This document shows, one piece after another, positions 2,792 to 23,524 of a stretch of 47,852 bases of DNA. Numbering within the stretch: the first letter of the stretch is position 1; each line of letters opens with the position of its first letter. Origin of the DNA: Elsinoe ampelina (lineage: Eukaryota); contig ML992503.1 in NCBI GenBank assembly GCA_010093995.1, positions 1,813,356 to 1,861,207 on the forward strand. The letters are read 5' to 3'. Below the pieces are notes generated by a model. It saw nothing but the letters and a program-made list of their open reading frames with translations, was not told the origin of the DNA and searched no databases. The position numbers and the translations under genes were made by a program.

Positions 2792-3254
2792 TGTTATAAA
2801 CTGTCTAAATATAGTCTATACTAGTAGTCTAAGCTAAGCTAAGAACGAGGTAGTTCTACTTCTATAGTAGTATAGTACTAAGGTAAGAGTTAGAGAAGGT
2901 ATATCTTATAGATAATAAAGTACAATTAGATAGTATTATAAAGGCTAGCCTTAGTAATACTAGTGTTTACTATCTAGATAAGATTAACTATAGTACTTAT
3001 ATAAGGTAAGGACTATTCCTATATATATATATTCTATATTATATACTCTATATACTTCGTATACTCCGTAGTAAGAGTCGAGAGCAATATAAAGTATATA
3101 TCTACTAGTAACCTATACGCTCTATAGTCTCTAGAGTAGAGCTACTAGAGAAGATAGAGAACTAGGTAAATATCGAGCTAAGTTATATAATAACCTTAGT
3201 AGTTTAATAAGTTCTAACGTCTCTATACTCTAGCTGTCCTACTAGTTTATAATA
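2792..3254 (-). repeat. 3' LTR of element A
   Basis: Colinear with 9332-9794 at offset 6540; the visible differences are transitions. Confidence 0.95.
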
Positions 3255-9331: not shown

Positions 9332-9794
9332 TATTACGAACTGTCTAAATATAGTCTATACTAGTAGTCTAAGCTAAGCTAAGAACGAGGTAGTTCTACT
9401 TCTATAGTAGTATAGTACTAAGGTAAGAGTTAAAGAAGGTACACCTTATAGATAATAAAGTATAATTAGATAGTATTATAAAGGCTAGTCTTAGTAATAC
9501 TAGTGTTCGCTATCTAGACAAGATTAACTATAGTACTTATATAAGGTAAGGACTATTCCTATATATATATATTCTATATTATATACTCTATATACTCTAT
9601 ATACTCTATAGTAAGAGTTAGAGGCAATATAGAGTATACGTTCGCTAGTAACCTATATACTCTATAGTCTCCGAAGTAGAGCTACTAGAGAAGATAGAGA
9701 ACTAGGTAAATATTAGACTAGGTTACGTAATAACCTTAGTAGTTTAATTAGTTCTAATGTCTCTATACTCTAGCTATTCTACTAGTTTATAACA
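9332..9794 (-). repeat. 5' LTR of element A
   Basis: Direct repeat of 2792-3254, followed by TSD TTTAG. Confidence 0.95.
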
Positions 9795-10830
9795 TTTAGA
9801 TCTACTTATAAAGTAATTAGCTAAGTATATAGCTAATTTTATCTATGTTATAAACGTTATAAGGCTTAATATTATAGACTTTAAATATGTAAGATATAAG
9901 GTTAAACTATACTTTAATTTTTATAGTATTACTAAGCTCTTCTAACCTATTACTATCTATAGCTAGTTATCGACGGAGATTAATCTCTAGATAGTGTCCT
10001 TTAAAGTACTTATACTAGCACTATCTAATAGGGGTAGGTTATATATACTAAGGTTAATTAGTTATAGTTTCTAGAAGGTAGCTAGTATAGAGATTAAGCT
10101 ACTAGTTATTTAAATTAAAGCTATTATATAATAGAAAGTATATAAAGTTAACTAGAGTACTCTCTTAAGCACTTATTAGGCGCTACTAGATAGAATATAC
10201 TATTACCTATAGCTTATATATACTCTTAAGTTAATAATAGAGAGTTTATCTAGTAATAAAAGAAAAGTGTCTAGTAAGCTCTTTTTTCTTTAGCTTGCCT
10301 TTTAACTAATAATATTTATATATAGTAGCTTATAACTACTTTTTATATTTAATTAACTATAGTAGAACTATTAGATAAGGTAGTATTTAGAAGGAGAGTA
10401 AGATAGAAGAAAGAAGAAATTCTAGAGCACTAATTAAGCCTAGTATTAGTATAGATTTAAATATTCTTATTAGCTCTAGCTAGAGTTAACCCTAAAGTAG
10501 CTAGAACTATACTATAGCTAGAACTATATCTCTAATATTAGTAACTTAAAACAGCGTAGCTCTTAATAGATAAATAGCTATAGATCTATACTAATAAGAA
10601 TAAGCTAAAGATTAAAATAGATAGATAGATAAAAGGTTATATAAGATTATAGCCTCTAAGTTTTTAAATCTTTTTACGCTAAGCATAGCTAGGAAAGAAG
10701 TGCCTATAGAGCCTAGCTACTAGATGCTTAAGGGAATTATTATTTAGTAGTCTAATTTTTCTTATCTAGTAGCCTTACTAAGGTAGCTTTCTAGGTTTAG
10801 GTATGCTATCTAGAGTCTAAACTAGCGCTT

Positions 10831-10908
10831 CGAAAAGGTGTCTTAAAGGGCATAGAGAGCGCTATCTCGAGACGTATAAAGAGGTGTCTTAAAGAGCATA
10901 AAAAGCAC
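10831..10908. repeat. Left part of a 22-24-bp tandem array that was split by the hAT insertion
   Basis: Units such as AAAAGGTGTCTTAAAGGGCAT and AGAGAGCGCTATCTCGAGACGTAT; the array resumes at 18617. Confidence 0.8.
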
Positions 10909-13329
10909 TAGTGTAACTATTAGGGCAGAGTTAGCCCCTTTAGGTTTAGTACTATACTAGGGTTTAGGTCGGCCTCTAGCTAGCGTAGTGCTACTAAGGG
11001 CTTAGTAGCACTAGTACTAGCTCCGCACCGTAGCTATAATAGCACTATACTAGCACTAGATATAGGTTAGGTTATGTATATTCTAGACGTAGTATAGTAC
11101 TAGGTTAGGTTAGTAGATAAGTAGTATAGTGCTATTAAGTCCTTAGCGTACCCTTACTAGCACTACACTAGAGTTACTATTCTTATAGTAAATTCTTATA
11201 GTAACTACTATATCCTATAACTCTTGTTACTTTTCTACTCTAAACGCTTAAAGTTATAGTAGGTAAAGGATACTAGAGAGAAGTAAAAGTTATTAATTAT
11301 TAACTCTTATATATAATTACGACCTAATAGTAATTTATAGAAGATTAACCTAATTAATATTATCTATATAACCTTTATAAGCCTATTTTACATACTTAGC
11401 TAGTAAGCTATATACTACCTAGAACTAATACTTTATTATCTTATTATCTACTTTATCTAGAGAATATTCTATCCTTAGTAAGTTTACCCTTATATAAATT
11501 ATAACTCTTAACTAGTAAACTAGAGTACTAAAGCTATTAGGTAGAGTCTAAGACTAGAATAATTAGTTCTAGGTAGTTTAGCCTTCTTACTAACTTATAG
11601 TATAGTTACGGATTGCCTTAATGCTATTAGATTACTAGTTAATAGTAAGTGTAAGGCTGTCTAGAGCCTTAATCTCTACCTAAAGGTTATTAATAAATTT
11701 ATAGTAAGTAATATTAGCCTAACAAATAATAGAGAGGCGAGTAGTAGACATAGTAGTAGATTTGCTTAAATTCTAGTAACTATTAGTATAAGTTATACTA
11801 TAGTAACGTAAAGGTATACTAGATAGTTGTTTAAATGTTTCTAAGGAGAGAAAGAAGTAACTTAGCTAATAATCTACTTATATCCCTTAGTATAATAATA
11901 GCTATTGTTCGATAATAGCTATTGTTAGTATTGTTGTTTTTTTATAATAGATAATAGCTATTGTCTATATTATTGTTCTTATAATAGGTAATGCTAGATA
12001 TATATACCTTTTAGTTACTATTTCTCCTTCTTCCTCTTAAACCTCTCTTTCTTATCGTTTAATACTTCCTTCTATAATGTCTCCTTCTTACGCTTAACTC
12101 TACCTCGACCTAGTAGATCTAATTCCCTTTTAGCCTTATAAGATAACTCCTAGCGACTATGCTAGGCCCTTATACCTACGTTAGTGTAAAGCCTATATCT
12201 ACCGTATAACTCTTATATATCTCGACTTTAATAACAACTACGAAATCTAAGCTAAATATATCTATAATAACTATAGAGGTTTAGTACTTTACTATAAAGC
12301 CTACCGCACTTACGATACCTCTTATAACTTTATAGGTGTTTCTAATCTAATCTTTCTCTATAATCTAACAAATATTAGTATAATATCTTATAGACTAATA
12401 ACATCTTTAACCTAATTAACATATAGCGCGCTATTAATTGTCTTATTCTCGATAGAAGAGTAGATCTACTCTTGCTCTTTACTATATGCTATAATATTAA
12501 ACGTAAGTAGAAGGAGTTAAATTACATTAACGATAGTAACAATAGTGTTTCTTCCGATAACTAATCTAATTAAGGTAGCATAGTCGAAGCGTTAGCGGGC
12601 TAATAGCTTTAGATAGTTATTAATAATATAGACTTACACTTTATAAAGACTTAATTACGTTGCTTCTTCCTGTAAGTAACTAAAATTAACTATAATAATA
12701 GCATATATAAGCTCTTAAAGTAGAAGTATTTATATTACCTCCGGCTACACTAGTAGTTATATTACTACCCTAAGTAGCACTATCGGTACTAGTAGTAGAA
12801 GCACCTCCCTCGTTGTTCTCTTTACTATTAGTGTTATTCTAGAAAGTAACCTAACTATTATTAGGCTTAAACTTAGTAAGAAAGTCGAGAGTATAATAAG
12901 GTAGATATTAGTAATAGTATAGAGAGTAGCGTTAGTAATAAGTTAGCTAAGGTCGTAGGTGCCGTAGTAGAGGTAGTTATTAAGGTTAATAATAAGAGAA
13001 GTAGCGCGGAGATTAGTTATAGCTTTAGCCTTTATATTATAGTTAATCTATACGATTTTCTTATTAACGTTTTTATAAGTAAATCCGGCACGACTAACGT
13101 AGATATAAATATAGTTATATTAAAGATACTAGCGGGCAAGGAAACGAGCTTCCTTAGGGCAGCTAACGAAGGGAGACTATTAGCATTAGTAGGTGGAATT
13201 ATATATAGTAATAGGGAAGATATACGCGAAAGTACTTTAGAGTAGGTATTAGTATAGATACTATAAGAGCGTTATTACTCGGAGGCTATTAACTAGATAC
13301 ACTTAGAATACTAGCCTCTAACCTTAGTA

Positions 13330-15850
13330 ACGTTATATAGTAGATCTTTGTCCTTATTATGCCCTTCTTCCTTATTAACCTCTTTGTTACTTAAACTATA
13401 GGTAGTAATATCTCTAAAGTTATTACTTATACTATCTATTCCGCTATTAGTATTATTATTAGCAGTAGTAAAATTATTTATCTTAGCCGATTAGATGTTT
13501 TAAAGATTGTTTTCTACTAGCTTAGAGACTATAATTTATTAGATTGTCTATAGAAGTAGTCTATGTCTTTAATTACTAATAATATTCTTTACTATATTAA
13601 AAATATATTTAATACCTACGCTAGTAATTAGTATTATAAGAACATTACGAGTAACATAAGCTAGTTATAGAAATAAGTACTTATTTTCTTTCTATTAAGA
13701 AAGAATATTAAATTCTAATATTTCTTATATAGGCGAAGTTCTAAGGTAATTCTTCCCTTCTATTCTTATTATATAGATGTCGCTCTACTCTTACGAAAGT
13801 ATATTATCTTAGCTAGATACTAGAGGTATAAAGCTACTCTCTATGTTTAATAAGGAAGGCTTCTTAAACTAGTAAGTAATAGACGAGGCTAGTAGAGGAG
13901 ATAGAAGAGTAGTTTAAAGAGAGTAGTTATTATTATAGTAATCGAGGTAGTCGAGGAACTATTTATAGTAAAGCAATTTAAAATATAGTTTCTACGAAGT
14001 ATACTTATATACACTAAGTTTCTAAGTTAGATTTAAGATTATACTACAATTAAATAGGAAACCTTAACCTTTACTTATTTACTTATAATACTTAGAAAGC
14101 TTAGTATAACTAGCTTTTACTACATTTTACATAACTAATAGCTAGTCTAAGTTGTTGTTCTTTTCCTAAGTAGACTTAACTACGTTAAGAAAGTCAAAAA
14201 GAGTATTATATATAAGCTATATATATTGTACTAATAGCGTATAAGACTAACTTAGCTAGTTAGTTACATTCTTAAAATTCTCTAGTATTTGAATAATAAT
14301 CTTTAGATATGCCTATTTAGCGTAGCTAAGGTAAAGGCATTTTATGTCTATATAATTAATAGATGCTATATCTTAATTAGCTAGCGCTTTATTAGTTTAG
14401 GGCTTATATACAATTATAATCTCCGCGTTAAGCTATTTATTAATAATTAGTTAAAGTTTAATAGCTTACTTATATATATTATATATTAAGTTCTAATAGG
14501 TATAAACGTCCTAAACAACTAAAAGTTATTTATAAGGAGGTAGATATACTTAAAGGGATTTAAAGTGTTAGTAGCGTTAAGGGGATTAGTTAATTATAAT
14601 ATAAATTATATAGAGCTTTAAAATTAGTTAAAAAACTATAAGAAAGAACTATAAGAAATATAACTTACTTTATAGAGAGAATTTAAAACTAATAGAGTTA
14701 TTTAAATATTATAGAGATACTACTTCTCGAGCTTATTAGCTTTCTTATTGTCCTCGGTAGTTTCTAGCTATAGGGCTTAAATAATATCTTATATAACAAG
14801 ATTAATTATATAGGCTAGATATAGAATTATATTCTCGATAGAGGACTAGTATATACTCTTCTTCTTAAGACCTTATTATACTTTAGATCGTAGAGTATTA
14901 TTGTTACTTATATTATTCGCTATAATAGTAAGAAGGTATATATTAATCTTTTTTTTTATTTAGAACTCTTAGTAGTTCCGTGCCGAGCGTAACTCTAGTA
15001 TACTATCTACTAATTAGTATAAAATCTAGTAGGTACTTACGTACTTACTAGTTGTTATTAATATAGTATATCTTTATAGCTACAAAACTTAGATAGTTAT
15101 TCGTAGACTAGCTATCTAGTATAATTGAAACTTTTGTCTAACTACTAAGATTAGTAAGAAGATTAGACTAAATGTCCTTATAGTGCTCTTTTAATAGCCT
15201 TAAGGCCTGTATCTAACCTAGAATATTAGTATATAGTTAGAGGAAATATATAAATTAGAGAAAGAAGAAATTATTAACTATTTAAAATAACTAATTACAA
15301 TTAATAAGGACCTTAATAAGCTCTTTTTTAAATTGTTCTAGGGAGAATTATAGTATATAGAATATAGTGCTAGTAGCGTTTACTTTTAATTACGTTAGAG
15401 CTATCTAAGCTACTAATTATTTATAGCTAGAAGATTTTATATTCTAGTAGCTTTAGTATCTAAGATGTTTTATTAGGTGTTTATTACTAATTAAGTTTAT
15501 TATTAAGTATTATAAAGCTCTACTATAGTAGAGATAATATATAAGAGGTATTCTATTAGTAAGCTTAGTACCTTTATTAAAGTTGGCCTAAATAACTCTA
15601 TAGCGGGTTATAGAATTCTAGTTTAGTAGGTTTCGTGTTCCGCTAACTCTTAATTTGCTACCTATTAATATTATAGGCTACTATATTTTCTAGGCTTATA
15701 TAGCTAGCTATTCTTCGAGTAGCATATCTAGTTAGTAGAGTAGACAGCTAACAATTTTAATAGTTTTATAGAATTAAGTAGAGAATAGATTGTTCTAGCA
15801 ATTAATATAGAACTCTTTAAGCTCATAGAGGAGAGATAGTAGTAGCATAA
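13330..15850 (-). pseudogene. hAT transposase (BED-type Zn finger, DDE core, hATC dimerisation domain); ends approximate
   Basis: De-RIPped motifs: CLHC...HLMKHL (~15460-15545), KVSITLDGWST (~15102-15135), LLTITADNASNN (~14897-14934), IPCLAHVINLVVQDII (~14780-14830), ILSWWKENE.SFPQLARVARDVLAIPITSVGVERVF (~13598-13710). Confidence 0.92.
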
Positions 15851-16100
15851 CAACTTCTAAGAGTATTCATAGTTAAGAATCAACTAAGTCTTTATTAAAT
15901 ACTAACATTTTAAGAGTAGAGATATAGAATATTACTAGCTATATAACAAGGAGTAGAAGACTATAAGAATACTCTATAAGAATCTATTAGCTACTCTTAA
16001 TTTATAGATTAAAAAATTTTTAATAGTATAGAACTAGAAAGCTACTAAAACTATAGTTTAATTTTCCTAACTTAAGGTTAATCTATTTATTCTTATCTAT

Positions 16101-16340
16101 NNNNNNNNNNNNNNNNNNNNNNNNNNNNNNNNNNNNNNNNNNNNNNNNNNNNNNNNNNNNNNNNNNNNNNNNNNNNNNNNNNNNNNNNNNNNNNNNNNNN
16201 NNNNNNNNNNNNNNNNNNNNNNNNNNNNNNNNNNNNNNNNNNNNNNNNNNNNNNNNNNNNNNNNNNNNNNNNNNNNNNNNNNNNNNNNNNNNNNNNNNNN
16301 NNNNNNNNNNNNNNNNNNNNNNNNNNNNNNNNNNNNNNNN
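16101..16340. other. Assembly gap (240 N)
   Basis: Run of N. Confidence 1.
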
Positions 16341-17588
16341 TACTTAGAGTTTAGTAGGTGTTATATTCTTAATAAACTTCTTAAACTTAGCTTAGTTACT
16401 ATTGTTATAGTTACTAGTATTATATAGTAAGTTAACGCTATTATAGTAGATCTTATAGGTCTATTTCTTAAGAATTCTACTAGTGCCGAGAAGATGTTTT
16501 ACTTAGCAATTTAGGAATATATTTATCTTGTTATAGAGCGCCTTCTTTATATAATTAGCAAGGAGTTACTTATAGTAAAGAAGAGTATTAGCTTTATAAA
16601 TACTACTCTATTTTTAGTAGATAGATATAAACTTATTCTTTAACTATTCCCTTATATAGAATTAGTAGATATACTATAAGAATGTACTATAAGAAACATA
16701 CTACTCTACTAGGTATAATAGTAAGTCTCTGCTATCTTCTTATATACTATATCGAAGGTAGCTTCTTTCTCCTTATTAGATATTACTTAGAATTTCTTAG
16801 AGTTCTTAAGTTTTATCTTAAGTATACGTTTTATAGAGTAATTAGTATTACTAGTAGTAGTAAGAGCTTTCTCCTCTATACTAGCTTATATAGCATAATC
16901 TCTTTACTAAATAGCTCGCTAGGTATTACTAAGCTATACTTTCTACTATAGAATTCTAAGGGGGTAGCTATAGTAAGGAGTTCTAGTATTCTAAGAGCGA
17001 TTTTTAATCTAGTATTTAATCTTATTAGCCTCGGAATTAAAACTCTATAGTCTAGTTAGTATTTAACTATAAGAAGTATCTATAAGAATTACTCCTATTA
17101 TAGCGAGGATTACTTTCTCTTCCTTAGTTATTTCTTTAGTCTTAATTACTAGAGCATTAGTTATCTTTTTCTCTTTACTAAAGGTTTACTAATCTATAGG
17201 ATTAGTAGACATTATAGATCGAGAATTAGTAGTAATTTATAAGAGAAGGTAGAATATTAAGTATAATAGGGAGCGAGATATAAGATATAAGTTTTATAAG
17301 AAGAAGATAAGAAGAGAAGGATTTAGTATTCCTTATATATATAGTAAATAGAGTAGCTAGAAATATAAGTAATAATAGGTATTAATTCTATTGTTATACT
17401 AATATAAAGTTGTTAATATTGTTAATATAAAGTCGTTATAGTAGAGAATAATAATACAAAATTTATATTCTATATACTATTATAAATTCCTTAATAAGGC
17501 TTAATATCTCGCTCTTAGTATTTTTGCCTTACTCTTCTTTACCTTTATAAATAAATTTTAATAATTAATTTAATAAATTTATATAGCT

Positions 17589-18170
17589 ATAGCTCGTAAG
17601 AAGTAAGTAACACCTCTAAAAAGAGTAAAGCTAAGAAAGTAAAGCGCTAAGAAAACCGCTACTAAAAAGCCTACTATAGATAGTTACGTAATAAAATTTA
17701 AACTAGTATTAACTAGACAAATTTGCTAGGCGAAGAGCTATAGGTTTAAGCTAGGTAGTTAGTTTCTTATAGTAAATTCTTATAGTCTTATATCTAATAT
17801 AGTATAGCTATTACTCTCCGAGAGATTTATTACTACTAGAAGATAACTAAACTTCTTATATATAAGCTTCTCTTCTTCTTTATTATTTATAACATTACGT
17901 AAGATATTAAGTTAACACTTATAAGTAGAGATTTACGCTTTATGCTAGATGCTATTAAGTGTCTCTAGAAAGTAAGTAAGGTAATACTAGTAGAATATTT
18001 TAAAAGTATATTAACTATATATTTAGAATATATAATACCTTATACTAATAACTATAGTAGACTATAATCTTAACGCTATCTATACTAAGTGTTGTACTAT
18101 TATATAGAAAGACTCTTAGCTTACTAGAAAATATTATAATAAGTACTACCTACTTACTTTCTCTAATTAG
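17589..18170 (+). pseudogene. Histone H3-like gene carried inside the hAT element, RIP-inactivated; introns 17758-17807 and 18006-18060
   Basis: De-RIPped: MARKKQ...PRKQ...HRFKPGT/VALREIxxYQKTTELLIxKLxF...QDIKSTLxSxDLRFMxDAIECLQEASEAMLVEYFE/DCNLNAIHAKxxTIMQKDSQLAR. Both introns have a GT donor, a CTAAT branch and a TAG acceptor, and restore the H3 frame. Confidence 0.92.
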
Positions 18171-18616
18171 TAAGATCTCTTCTCTATAATGCTATAAGAA
18201 TAGACTATAAGAAATAGACAGGTGTATTTTTATATAGACTAGACTATTAAATTTCCTTTTTATAGACTTATTATAATGCTAAAGTATAGTATAGTAACTA
18301 TAGTTGCCTTAAAGCCTAACTAAGCTATAGTACTATAACATAGTATAATACTAGGATTTAACCCTAGTACTAATTTAGTATAGTACTATTATAGTGTAGT
18401 ATAGCGCTATTATAGTATAGTGCTATTCTTGCTTAACTACAGTGCGGTGCTAGTGCTAGTGTAGCTCGGCGTAGTGCTAGTGCTAGTGCTAATATAGTAG
18501 AGTATAGAGCTAGTGCTATTTAGTTTAGTACCGGGTGCTAACCTGCTAAGAATAGCTCTATACTAGCACCGGGGTTGGCCTTCGGCCGCCCTAACCCCGC
18601 CCTAACAGTCACACTA

Positions 18617-18708
18617 AAAAGCACTATCTTAAAGGGCATAAAAAGCGCTATCTTAAAGAGTATAAAAAGCGCTGTCTCGAAGGGCATAAAAAGCACTATC
18701 TCGAAGGA
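18617..18708. repeat. Right part of the 24-bp tandem array (about 4 units, AAAAAGCGCTATCTYRAAGGGCAT)
   Basis: Units are directly visible after the hAT right TIR, the first overlapping the TSD. Confidence 0.85.
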
Positions 18709-20550
18709 CAAGAAAGCTAGGTATATTAGCTTATAACTAGACCTTGACTATATTCTAGAGTTGAAAAGGGATGCGAAGCGGGCGTCTCCATAGGCTAGAG
18801 ACTAAAAAGGACTAACACGGCCACCGGATAAGAAAAATCGGGCCACCGAATAACAATTCCCGATGCTCGACGTCGCGTATACCCGGGGAGGGGCGGCGAC
18901 CGGCATTGTGCATGGGTGGAAGATCCACTGATGCGGTCCCCAAGATGAGGGATTTTCTTCTTGAAGAGACGAGATGCTCTGTCCAAGGTTCAGCTTCACT
19001 GTATGTGAGCAAGGGGAGCGTGAATAAGTGGAGCATGAACATGTGGAGGCGGGTGATGCGGCTCGACGTGAGTGCACCATTCAAGCAGGTCCACAGGTTC
19101 ACGAGGCAAGAAACAAAGAGACGGGCACTTCGCTCGGGTAGACAGAAAGGGGAAAGCAAAGCTAAAATGCAAACGTGGCGAAAACTATGCTTGACGAATG
19201 ACATTCTGCAAAGGTGCATCATGCCGCGTTCAGGGAGTGATCGACCAAAGGGGGGCAGCCTCAGCTCACCGCGAGGCTAGCGAATCAATATCGATGAGCG
19301 TGAGCGGTGATACCGCCGCAACGTGACAGTGCGCAAAACCTCTGATGGACAGCGGTGAATAGACCGATGGGTAATAATGTAGAATTTGGTTGTCTCACAG
19401 CATCGCCAGCGCATGTTGTAGGACTCGGCCAGGAATATGACGCACCGGTGTTTTGTTCCTGCCGCATCGGGACGGCATGAGGCATGTCGATCTCGGATCG
19501 CGGCAGAGAAAACAAAATTCTAATTTCCACACCAAGCATCATTCAGTTGCTCAGGTGAACTTTTAACCTTGAATGCTCGCGCAATCGCCAAAGAAGTTTT
19601 CCCGAACGCAAAAAAGGCAATGGTAGAGCATATTGGAACCGGCGGTGGACCGTCTGAGGGACAAACATGGGTAGTAGGCCGTGACATGACTCTCTGCCAA
19701 ACGAGCAGGCTACTGGTAAAAAGCATCGGAAATAACAGACTAGTGGCACCATGTCATGCTCGTGGACGCAGCAGATCTTGCGATATTGTCGTGTATCCCA
19801 CAGTCGAACATGTTCTCTAGCTGCCTGATGGGAAACATTATCATGTACTACCGCCCGCCGTTCGGATTGACTACCGCTCCAAAATAATCAGGATCTCAAT
19901 CAGATCGGGTCGCCACGACGTCGGAACAAGGCCTGTGCGGAGGAAAAAAGGTGTTGCGGCCGGCTCCCCGTGTGTTCCCATCGTCGATTGAACAGCTTAG
20001 CGTCGTTTGGCTTCACAGCGACTCGCTCATTCCATCGATCTTCTCCCATCTCCACACTGGTCTCACTGGCACGACTGGATCCATCGAAGGCCCGCTGGTG
20101 TCCACTCACACATCCTGCCGCATTCTGCCCATGACCGGTTTCTTGTCTCCCCTGTCACATTCACCAATTCGCCACATCTCCGGGCGAGCCACATGAACTG
20201 CCCACCCAGGTGCCCATTTTTTTTTTCTCCCACGCTGCTAGCCCGTCGAGCTTATTAGAGGTGCTGCATCGCGGACCAATTCTGCCCCTTCACCGTTCAG
20301 TCCAACAAAGAATCGCAACTTCATTGACCCAAAGTATTCACACAAAAGACACAACTTCTGTCCACGCCCGCGCCTCGCGCCACCCAGCTTTGCATCTCGC
20401 GTGCAATGACCCCGCTCCTCCCGCAACTAGCTCCGATCCAACTGAAACTCTGATCGCAAAGCACAAGCAAACTCGCAACGCCAGCCGGCAGGGCAGCTCA
20501 GCGTCGAACAGGCCGAACCCAAGCAGCAGCCTCATTGTTCCGCCTTCGTC

Positions 20551-21300
20551 ATGCCACGCAGGTCCGCTCAGAATCTCTCTCCACAATCCCTCCACCACCA
20601 TCAGCACCAATATACGTCCCTACACCAGCAACCTCAAGCCATTCACGACTTTACCTCGTCCATTGACACATCCATCCTCGGCTACCCGACAACCACGAGC
20701 TTCGACCTCGTCCTCCCGCAGCCCGGCGTCAAACAGCCGATTATGATGACCGACTCGGTCCACTCCAAATACGGCCAGATCACACCTCCTGAAGACCACT
20801 GGAAGCAGCCTTGGGAAGCCATCAACCCATCAATGAACCCAGAACAGTTTATGACCGGTCGCGACCGCAGTCAGAGCCGAGACTCGTCGTCAAGCCTTCC
20901 CGCCACCTCGTCAGGCAGGGTTGACAAGAAGGACAAATACCGAGAGAAGAATCGTGTCGCGGCGGCAAAGTGTAGGGCAAAGAAGAAAGAGCACGTCGAC
21001 GGCCTGGAGGAGAACCACCGGACACAGAGCATGCTCAATGCTCTGCTCAAGCAGACCGAGCAGAACCTGCGGGACGAGCTGTCCTTCTGGCGGACGCAGG
21101 CGCTACAACACGCCTTCTGCGACTGCTCAGCCGTGCAGGACTACAACCTCAAAAAGGCTCGCGCCCTCGCCGCTGACAAGAACTTTGGCGACCAAGATGG
21201 TCTTCGTCGAGATTCGATGAACCAGTCGCCGTCGTCCAAGGTGGGCGCCATGTCCTTCTACCCACAACCGCATCCAGAGTTTGACGCCCAAGCCCCGTGA
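20551..21300 (+). CDS. bZIP transcription factor, ATF/CREB (Atf21/AtfB-like) type, 249 aa, intronless
   Basis: Basic region KYREKNRVAAAKCRAKKK; zipper LEENHRTQSMLNALLKQTEQNLRDEL; downstream HAFCDC motif typical of fungal Atf-like bZIPs; ITPPED motif upstream. Confidence 0.9.
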   Translation: MPRRSAQNLSPQSLHHHQHQYTSLHQQPQAIHDFTSSIDTSILGYPTTTSFDLVLPQPGVKQPIMMTDSVHSKYGQITPPEDHWKQPWEAINPSMNPEQFMTGRDRSQSRDSSSSLPATSSGRVDKKDKYREKNRVAAAKCRAKKKEHVDGLEENHRTQSMLNALLKQTEQNLRDELSFWRTQALQHAFCDCSAVQDYNLKKARALAADKNFGDQDGLRRDSMNQSPSSKVGAMSFYPQPHPEFDAQAP

Positions 21301-23355: not shown

Positions 23356-23524
23356 CTACAAGGTGAGCCTCCTCGAGAGGACGATATCATACAACAGTTC
23401 TTTTTACTTCGATCAAGTCATATTTTGTACTAGACACTGATCAGTCTACGGCTGAACACATTCCCCTTCGCTCCAGATCACACACCCAGCTGCTGTCAGC
23501 TTTTGCTTAGCTGCTCTAGTCACC

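Follow-up and report, generated by a model that had tools for sequence, protein, structure and literature searches.

Remains of a histone H3-like gene with an altered tail on a many-copy DNA transposon of Elsinoe ampelina

The H3-like gene and the element that carries it

The window analysed here is a stretch of 47,852 nucleotides from Elsinoe ampelina (GenBank assembly GCA_010093995.1, contig ML992503.1, positions 1,813,356 to 1,861,207 of the forward strand); all coordinates below count from its first letter. It holds a DNA transposon and, within this, a dead histone H3-like gene of three exons (Table 1). Our subject is the first exon, 17589-17757. It is probably the tail exon of an H3-like gene that was borne by a many-copy transposon and killed through repeat-induced point mutation (RIP), and those changes of the tail which RIP does not account for are probably family-wide and inherited from the founder copy.

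Likeness to the H3 fold is found in exons 2 and 3 which, judged by sequence, are histone H3. Exon 2 matches 149 distinct solved sequences at E <=10 (HMMER), the best with an E of 0.0061 over H3 residues 46-92, and among the matches listed (60 of 149) every one is named histone H3. Against exon 2, HMMER opens a gap of five residues in the H3 chains after K79-T80. Exon 3 has 114 matches among solved chains (best E 0.24, residues 100-131). The tail exon by itself has 0 matches to solved chains at E <=10. The read-through frame remains below the gathering score of Pfam PF00125 (12.3 versus 26.4 bits) because of RIP damage and because the gene is split over several frames. The motifs around K56 (Y-Q-K, tac tag aag) and K79 (D-I-K, gat att aag), which the initial annotation had listed as kept, are both present in exon 2.

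The gene model was completed with splice phases that were set by eye against the hAT consensus of Cercospora zeae-maydis (Dhillon 2019, supplement 2). Exon 1 ends with base 17757, and the donor GTTAGT opens at 17758. There is no open reading frame: the former ATG now is ATA (17589-17591), and seven internal stops, all TAA or TAG, interrupt the gene ahead of the terminal TAG TAA of exon 3 (18168-18173). Behind the ATA, exon 1 continues gct cgt aag aag taa, i.e., A-R-K-K-(Q), followed by gta aca cct cta aaa. With stops read through, its frame 1 gives I-A-R-K-K-x-V-T-P-L-K-R-V-K-L-R-K-x-S-A-K-K-T-A-T-K-K-P-T-I-D-S-Y ... A-K-S-Y-R-F-K-L-G.

That the H3 tail is transposon-borne, as was initially proposed, is confirmed: the entire gene, 17589-18170, is situated between the inverted ends of an element (10732-18861) which has a target-site duplication and contains a PF05699 domain. 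The terminal inverted repeats agree in 33 of 43 bases, and at each of the ten mismatches, which are all transitions, the left repeat has A/T where the right one has G/C; further collinear inverted blocks extend about 500 bp inward. The PF05699 domain was found on a read-through translation, its coordinates having been converted from residues 1748-1824 of frame six, and it is the only family in the six read-through frames of 10001-19000. By this one domain the superfamily would be hAT. A word-based protein search with the transposase region yielded 7,225 candidates, none at E <=0.001.

Two further observations concern the sub-terminal DNA. The units of about 24 nt at 10829-10918 and 18615-18706 are in direct orientation, whereas the ends of the element are inverted. 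The exact 23-nt string TTCTTATAGTAAATTCTTATAGT occurs at 11180-11202, in the left sub-terminal region, and again at 17764-17786, in intron 1; a near copy is located on the opposite strand at 18192-18213. The recurrence may be fortuitous, the DNA being of low complexity, or it may reflect a sub-terminal motif.

The marks of RIP are evident throughout. In the H3-like gene TpA/ApT is 1.98 and (CpA+TpG)/(ApC+GpT) is 0.16; the respective values are 1.84 and 0.24 for the element as a whole and 0.60 and 1.27 for the adjoining GC block. The window alternates between AT-rich blocks (GC 0.19-0.38) and a single GC-rich one (18.9-25 kb, GC about 0.5), and 17589-17757 is located in an AT-rich block. RIP killed the entire element including the H3-like gene, and the present copy does nothing. 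At the end of the element, 18400-18861 (about 460 bp), RIP is far milder, with GC 0.44 and (CpA+TpG)/(ApC+GpT) 0.68 against GC 0.28 and 0.24 for the whole element, a gradient toward the GC-rich block.

Table 1. Positions of the transposon, the H3-like gene and their parts in the window
Feature	Position	Strand	Remarks
DNA transposon, 8,130 bp	10732-18861		inverted ends and target duplication
Left target-site duplication GATGCTTAA	10723..10731	.	matches GATGCTCGA apart from a C>T and a G>A
Left terminal inverted repeat, 43 nt, RIP-mutated	10732..10774	+	compared with reverse complement of 18819-18861
Left sub-terminal repeat units	10829..10918	.	related to 24-nt units at 18615-18706; 58/72 bases identical
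Remnant of hAT transposase C-terminal dimerisation domain	13527..13757	-	Pfam PF05699, E 4.5e-05, 23.6 versus cut-off 21.4 bits
Run of N, 240 bases	16101..16340	.	between transposase remnant and H3-like gene
H3-like gene, three exons	17589 to ~18170	+	dead; ~700 bp inside the right end of the transposon
Exon 1, N-terminal tail including former start codon	17589..17757	+	169 nt, ends in phase 1 within T45 codon
42-nt segment unlike H3, GTAATA...TTAACT...TAG	17688..17729	+	candidate extra intron or in-frame 14-codon tail insertion; alignment scores
Intron 1, 50 nt, GTTAGT...CTAAT...TAG	17758..17807	+	frame 1 to 3; phase 1 in T45 codon
Exon 2, H3 residues 45-105, alpha-N to alpha-2 of histone fold	17808..18005	+	likeness to solved H3 chains
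5-codon insertion after K79-T80, loop 1	17915..17929	+	HMMER gap and codon alignment; exact placement ambiguous
Intron 2, 55 nt, GTATAT...CTAAT...TAG	18006..18060 (3' end alternatively 18057)	+	frame 3 to 1; phase 1 at D106
Exon 3, H3 residues 106-134 and short extension to TAG TAA	18061..18170	+	H3 chain matches
24-nt tandem sub-terminal repeats	18615..18706	.	at 18616/18617 many copies of the family diverge from the window
Right terminal inverted repeat, little RIP	18819..18861	-	compared with 10732-10774
Right target-site duplication GATGCTCGA	18862..18870	.	9 bp

Tail and fold compared with canonical H3

Codons of the window were compared with the canonical H3 unit of one database protein, and reversals of T to C and of A to G were allowed; residues that can be regained in this manner are called RIP-reachable. 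Six of the seven internal stops stand at Gln codons of the reference. The tail, aligned after removal of 17688-17729, has a score of 46. Shuffled reference tails have a mean of 11.5 (sd 5.6, maximum 33), and 46 is attained by 0 of 1000. When the segment is read through, the tail scores 33, a value attained by 2 of 1000 shuffles. Therefore, the tail is a true derivative of an H3 tail.

The segment 17688-17729 itself is at chance level, its score being matched by 901 of 1000 shuffles. When it is taken out the tail score rises as given above, and cct act ata gat agt pairs with P30-A31-T32-G33-G34 of the reference, 5/5 being identical or RIP-reachable. The initial annotation had regarded about 17680-17729 as either an intron or a tail extension. 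The segment as such is borne out and both interpretations persist: from its sequence it would be either a third intron, with a poor donor, or an insertion of 14 codons.

The reference has 45 tail positions (Met plus residues 1-44), of which 13 are identical in the window, 15 others are RIP-reachable, 14 are unreachable and 3 have been deleted. Kept or reachable are R2, K4, Q5, A7, G12, G13, P16-R17-K18-Q19, A21, K23-A24-A25, K27, P30-G34, K37, H39, R40, and R42-T45. The 17 positions which are unreachable or deleted comprise T3, T6, R8, K9, S10, T11, K14, A15, L20, T22, R26, S28, A29, V35, K36, P38, and Y41; thus the initial claim of differences beyond the reach of RIP is upheld when the reversals are enumerated. 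The R8-K9 pair is missing, the S10-T11-G12 context is changed, and R26 and S28 are lost. The region around K27 reads aag aaa acc gct act aaa aag cct (K-K-T-A-T-K-K-P). The place of K36 is taken by gcg (Ala), followed by aag agc tat agg ttt aag cta ggt, i.e., K-S-Y(H)-R-F-K-L(P)-G. Between Q5 and the place of G12-G13 there is no lysine under any placement of gaps. The codons are precisely those on which the initial annotation had relied, namely an ARKKQ start without a subsequent ARKS at K9, a K(T/A)ATKKP region at K27, and an Ala in place of K36. The A-R-K-S motifs at K9 and K27 and the K36 of a canonical tail are absent, and no lost site is recovered by reversing RIP. The tail lacks the usual sites of silencing marks.

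The fold has also diverged. Of its 91 reference positions 39 are identical, 32 RIP-reachable, 19 unreachable and 1 is deleted, and the insertion of five codons is added to this. At codon 69 most other copies have TAT, and from this the Arg of the reference is RIP-reachable.

The exons differ in length from H3 at four places: two codons are missing near R8-K9 and one near S28-A29, 14 are added at 17688-17729, and five in loop 1. All four changes are multiples of three, and the homology resumes in the same frame on either side of each. If indel lengths were random, this would happen by chance about once in 81 cases. Therefore, translation of the gene presumably continued during its divergence from H3.

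Copies in Elsinoe ampelina and relatives in other fungi

Contigs from two DNA runs of one sample, X1 and X2, were compared with 16341-18900 (2,560 bases) at a likeness of at least 80%. This returned 1,103 contig pieces from X1 and 827 from X2, and in both the coverage of the H3-like part resembles that of its flanks. The summed depth is in the thousands compared with about 166-186 for the single contig which matches the window exactly, although summed depth does not equal copy number. The element is highly repeated in the genome of Elsinoe ampelina, perhaps in dozens of copies, in RIP-mutated, AT-rich DNA.

The copies vary almost exclusively by transitions. Among the variable places with a share of at least 5% there are 99 transitions and 3 transversions in X1, 105 and 4, respectively, in X2. 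Ten indels are listed among the copies, none of them within 17589-17757, and among the rows of differing letters listed (40 of 115) none is in the tail. To restore R8-K9, an insertion of two codons and several transversions are required. Since transitions dominate to such an extent, the founder copy must already have had this tail; and since no listed indel affects the tail, no consensus of the family restores ARKS at K9. The initial annotation had named such a restored consensus as the outcome that would speak against it, and at K9 the copies give the opposite result.

The right end of the element is confirmed by the copies because their contigs diverge from the window directly behind 18861 (agreement 0.51). 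Over 18577-18861 the summed contig depth is lower by about 8-fold, and the likeness of several copies to the window ends at 18616/18617, where the tandem units begin; in most copies the terminal 250 bp may be lacking or of greater variability. Two presumed RNA runs returned 0 pieces and 1 piece, respectively, the latter restricted to 18673-18861 with 15 differing letters, which is uninformative with respect to expression.

Searches for related proteins were carried out at several levels. Within the window there is no second H3-like copy: self-blastn yields AT-rich noise, the best other match (62%, 11172-11634) lacking H3 features, and tblastn with the three exons returns only self matches at E <0.01. 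A word-based protein search with the frame that contains exons 1 and 3 had 29 candidates, none at E <=10. Exon 2 was compared with 1.84 billion representative proteins and has 15 matches at E <=0.001. The ten examined comprise one other divergent H3-like protein and gene models in which two or three canonical H3 units are fused or repeated, so that the scores of the units add up. None of the ten is nearer to exon 2 than canonical H3 (38-46% identity). Intact homologues, which the initial annotation had asked for, were not found in these protein searches. When two stretches of the right inverted end were searched for in metagenomes, 0 matches and then 1 were obtained; the contig concerned shares a single 20-mer (its positions 2001-2020) with the right inverted end and nothing else, and was discarded as chance.

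Two published cases are pertinent. In Pyrenophora tritici-repentis the H3-like gene H3L was transduplicated by a hAT transposon; 26 nearly identical copies are present in hAT elements of 5.6 and 2.3 kb, are expressed and hardly touched by RIP, and differ by 13 silent and 3 missense changes and 2 frameshifts (Manning 2013, PMC3538342). The H3L tail has insertions, and neither H3 nor the centromeric CenH3 matched fully; altered chromatin was raised as a possible cause of repeat amplification (Manning 2013, PMC3538342). The Elsinoe gene shares with H3L the location inside a DNA transposon, where it is flanked by the inverted ends and accompanied by a hAT dimerisation domain, the multitude of copies, a fold that fits neither H3 nor CenH3 fully, and insertions in the tail. 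Unlike the intact and expressed H3L with its 5.6- and 2.3-kb elements, the Elsinoe element is 8.1 kb long and RIP has mutated all of its copies seen.

The second case comprises hundreds of RIP-killed H3-like copies on hAT elements of about 9.5 kb in six Mycosphaerellaceae from the genera Pseudocercospora, Cercospora and Sphaerulina; Myriangiales were not among the genomes screened, as far as the source text consulted goes (Dhillon 2019, PMC6710886). In the text of that report the terms tail, lysine, H3K9 and heterochromatin have 0 occurrences each. Common to these elements and the present one are an H3-like gene near one end of a large hAT element and many copies in AT-rich blocks affected by RIP with a CpA>TpA bias. 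The termini differ: the published elements have ends of 18-20 bp starting with TAG and duplications of 8 bp, here the ends have 43 nt starting with GGGAATT and the duplication has 9 bp. The copies of P. fijiensis were called intronless retrocopies, and from them it was argued that a spliced transcript had been captured (Dhillon 2019, PMC6710886), whereas the Elsinoe gene keeps introns. Five terminal and four coding motifs of the element are absent from parts 1-3 of the five parts of the published consensus file; the short motifs which are present there are uninformative.

The published consensuses were also inspected by eye. That of C. zeae-maydis has GTAAGT...CTAAC...TAG interruptions at the codons of T45 and D106, the same codons as in the window gene. 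Although both consensuses are RIP-mutated, the tail of C. zeae-maydis reads approximately M-A-(R)-K-(T/I)-P-V-G-K-A-P-R-K with G-V-K-K-P kept, and that of Sphaerulina musiva G-R-T-K-K-V-V-(Q, reachable from R)-K-T-Y-P, later V-R-K-A-P. The window and C. zeae-maydis have in common a T-P pair at the place of S10-T11, the window and S. musiva an A-x-K-x-P at K27 that is shorter by one residue. Both features hint at common descent with the published elements. The founder H3 variant appears to be of the same kind as H3L and the hAT-borne H3-like sequences of Mycosphaerellaceae. Beyond Manning 2013 and Dhillon 2019, our literature search found no further report of a transposon-encoded histone or of an H3-like gene in Elsinoe. 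Transposon-borne H3-like genes having already been described in Pyrenophora and Mycosphaerellaceae, the gene in the window joins them as a new member, dead and apparently from Elsinoe.

Elsewhere in the window, two pairs of direct repeats (2794-3093 and 9334-9633, 93% alike; 38001-38187 and 44401-44587, 88%), the members of each about 6.5 kb apart, resemble the long terminal repeats of two RIP-mutated retroelements. An ATF-type bZIP gene on the forward strand (20551-21297) is 97% identical to a protein of Elsinoe batatas and 82% identical to one of E. fawcettii. On the same strand 23456-24709 is an open frame of 417 codons, Ser- and Pro-rich, with a start resembling a signal peptide. A second run of N covers 25645-26149 (505 bases).

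Possible roles of the altered tail

We favour, with some reserve, the reading that the founder gene was a functional, translated, diverged H3 variant which was riding on the transposon. Preservation of the frame, the age of the tail changes relative to amplification, and the published cases point in this direction. Several observations weigh against this reading, or against a tail shaped for evading silencing. The tail is somewhat, though not significantly, more altered than the fold: 17 of 45 versus 20 of 91 positions are beyond reversal of RIP (odds ratio 2.2, Fisher p = 0.066). Because the fold has diverged, general drift fits equally well as a remodelling specific to the tail. Further, the reference is an animal-type H3 and not a fungal one, and a few of the fold differences may be differences between lineages. 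The argument from the reading frame is weakened to about 1 in 27, for three events, if 17688-17729 is an intron, and also if the small gaps in the tail are alignment artefacts. K27 itself is retained. The tails of the other copies are visible only in the totals of each kind of change, and 1.84 billion representative proteins yielded no intact relative (10 of 15 matches examined). With respect to the element, a duplication of 9 bp and ends of 43 nt are atypical of hAT (8 bp, short ends), and the PF05699 domain could stem from a nested fragment. Finally, going by the consensuses, A-R-K contexts seem to be kept in the published relatives and lost only in the family of the window, which speaks against a design of the tail. 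Since the relatives seem to keep A-R-K, the tail without K9 is specific to this lineage and not a conserved design.

Foremost among the alternatives, and a possibility to be taken seriously even if we give it less credence, is a neutral passenger. Here, a host H3 gene with its introns was captured, never had a role, drifted and was destroyed by RIP, and the missing sites are random losses. Such drift is in line with non-RIP changes in tail and fold alike and with tails that, by eye, differ between families; as introns are retained, the captured piece was genomic DNA. Both earlier reports read such genes as captured, possibly drifted copies (Manning 2013, PMC3538342; Dhillon 2019, PMC6710886). 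A gene without a role is, however, not expected to change its exon length four times out of four by multiples of three or to retain splice-like signals. H3-like genes recur on hAT-type elements in apparently three orders of Dothideomycetes, and the predominance of silent over missense changes (13 versus 3) among the copies of P. tritici-repentis (Manning 2013, PMC3538342) likewise argues for a function.

The initial annotation went further and proposed a selected variant refractory to silencing marks. Its factual part stands insofar as the tail changes are not due to RIP, were present in the founder and left the frame intact; the part which concerns selection loses ground with a tail excess that is not significant, a K27 that is kept, and a design that is not shared by relatives. 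The variant would have been unable to receive H3K9me and H3K27me, and heterochromatin and DNA methylation would have been weakened over the element or genome-wide in favour of transposition. We regard this as unlikely, and consider it equally doubtful that the tail turned the founder protein into a non-substrate for the H3K9 methyltransferase which would have diluted heterochromatin dominantly. Quite unlikely is the most extended version, by analogy, that hAT-type transposons of Dothideomycetes are long-standing carriers of a selected H3 variant, the unmarkable tail of which dominantly weakened H3K9me/H3K27me silencing until RIP intervened. The sequence of events would be as follows. The contexts R8-G12 and R26-S28 as well as K36 would have been lost from the tail in this lineage; in a burst of many copies the variant H3 would have entered nucleosomes where it could not be marked; silencing based on H3K9me and H3K27me would have been weakened dominantly, similar to the effect of engineered K9L/K9R alleles in Neurospora; RIP would then have destroyed the family.

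The precedent for the dominant step is from Neurospora crassa. There, ectopic hH3 with K9L or K9R removes DNA methylation beside wild-type H3, and DIM-5 requires only R8-G12 in vitro (Adhvaryu 2011, PMC3248561). Like these alleles, the window gene is an extra H3 gene beside the normal H3 with a product that would be non-methylatable at K9; unlike them, it is natural, far more diverged and dead, the K9L/K9R alleles being engineered and otherwise canonical. The altered sites are those an evasion would demand, i.e., R8-K9 absent, S10-G12 altered, R26 and S28 lost and Ala at the place of K36, in a tail that is older than the amplification and in a gene with its frame preserved, and altered chromatin behind repeat amplification has been suggested before (Manning 2013, PMC3538342). 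Against this, K4 is retained along with K27, the tail is not clearly more changed than the fold, and the loop-1 insertion together with about 20% fold changes may hinder nucleosome assembly. By eye, the tails of S. musiva and C. zeae-maydis keep A-R-K-T-like and R-K-A-P-like contexts. Since every copy seen here is RIP-mutated regardless, any evasion failed in this genome. Evasion would also need a route to the element, and we know of no way in which a free histone could be aimed at the element's own chromatin. VANC of the Arabidopsis VANDAL elements is a transposon-encoded factor that counters epigenetic silencing. TET/JBP dioxygenases are found on fungal DNA transposons (PMC12730594). The H3-like gene would share with both the concept of a transposon gene that acts on silencing marks; those are enzymes and DNA-binding proteins, not histones.

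In centromeric H3 (CenH3, CENP-A, Cse4), which is a single-copy, essential host gene, the tail is divergent and free of ARKS motifs, and loop 1 is longer. The window gene, with a loop 1 that is longer by five residues and a divergent tail, shows a certain resemblance. One may thus ask whether the captured gene was an already diverged host variant, centromeric or other, from which the odd tail was inherited, and filamentous fungi are cited as having two or three genes of the H3 family (Manning 2013, PMC3538342). We judge this to be very unlikely: among the exon 2 matches listed (60) all are H3, none is CENP-A or Cse4, and the tail is collinear with canonical H3, from the M-A-R-K-K-Q start through R-K-Q in the middle to K-x-H-R-F-K-P-G at the end. 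H3L, too, fits neither H3 nor CenH3 fully (Manning 2013, PMC3538342). Damage private to this copy, of which 17880 is an instance (T in the window, A in most copies), or a chance likeness to H3 can hardly be credited as the origin of the tail differences when 0 of 1000 shuffles reach the tail score, at most 3-4 places in 2,560 bases vary by transversion among the copies, and no listed indel is in the tail.

We return to the diverged, translated H3 variant on a transposon as the reading that we prefer. In the portions of the two earlier reports available to us, the H3-like genes are treated as captured passengers and their modification sites are unanalysed (Manning 2013; Dhillon 2019). The present locus adds what is likely a third fungal order, a site-by-site account of marks that could not be placed, and length changes which are all in-frame. 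By itself a dead repeat, it cannot settle the matter of evasion; the intact copies of Pyrenophora make the question testable. Histones are the substrate of the marks by which transposons are silenced, and an element with its own unmarkable histone would, if true, represent a new kind of counter-defence.

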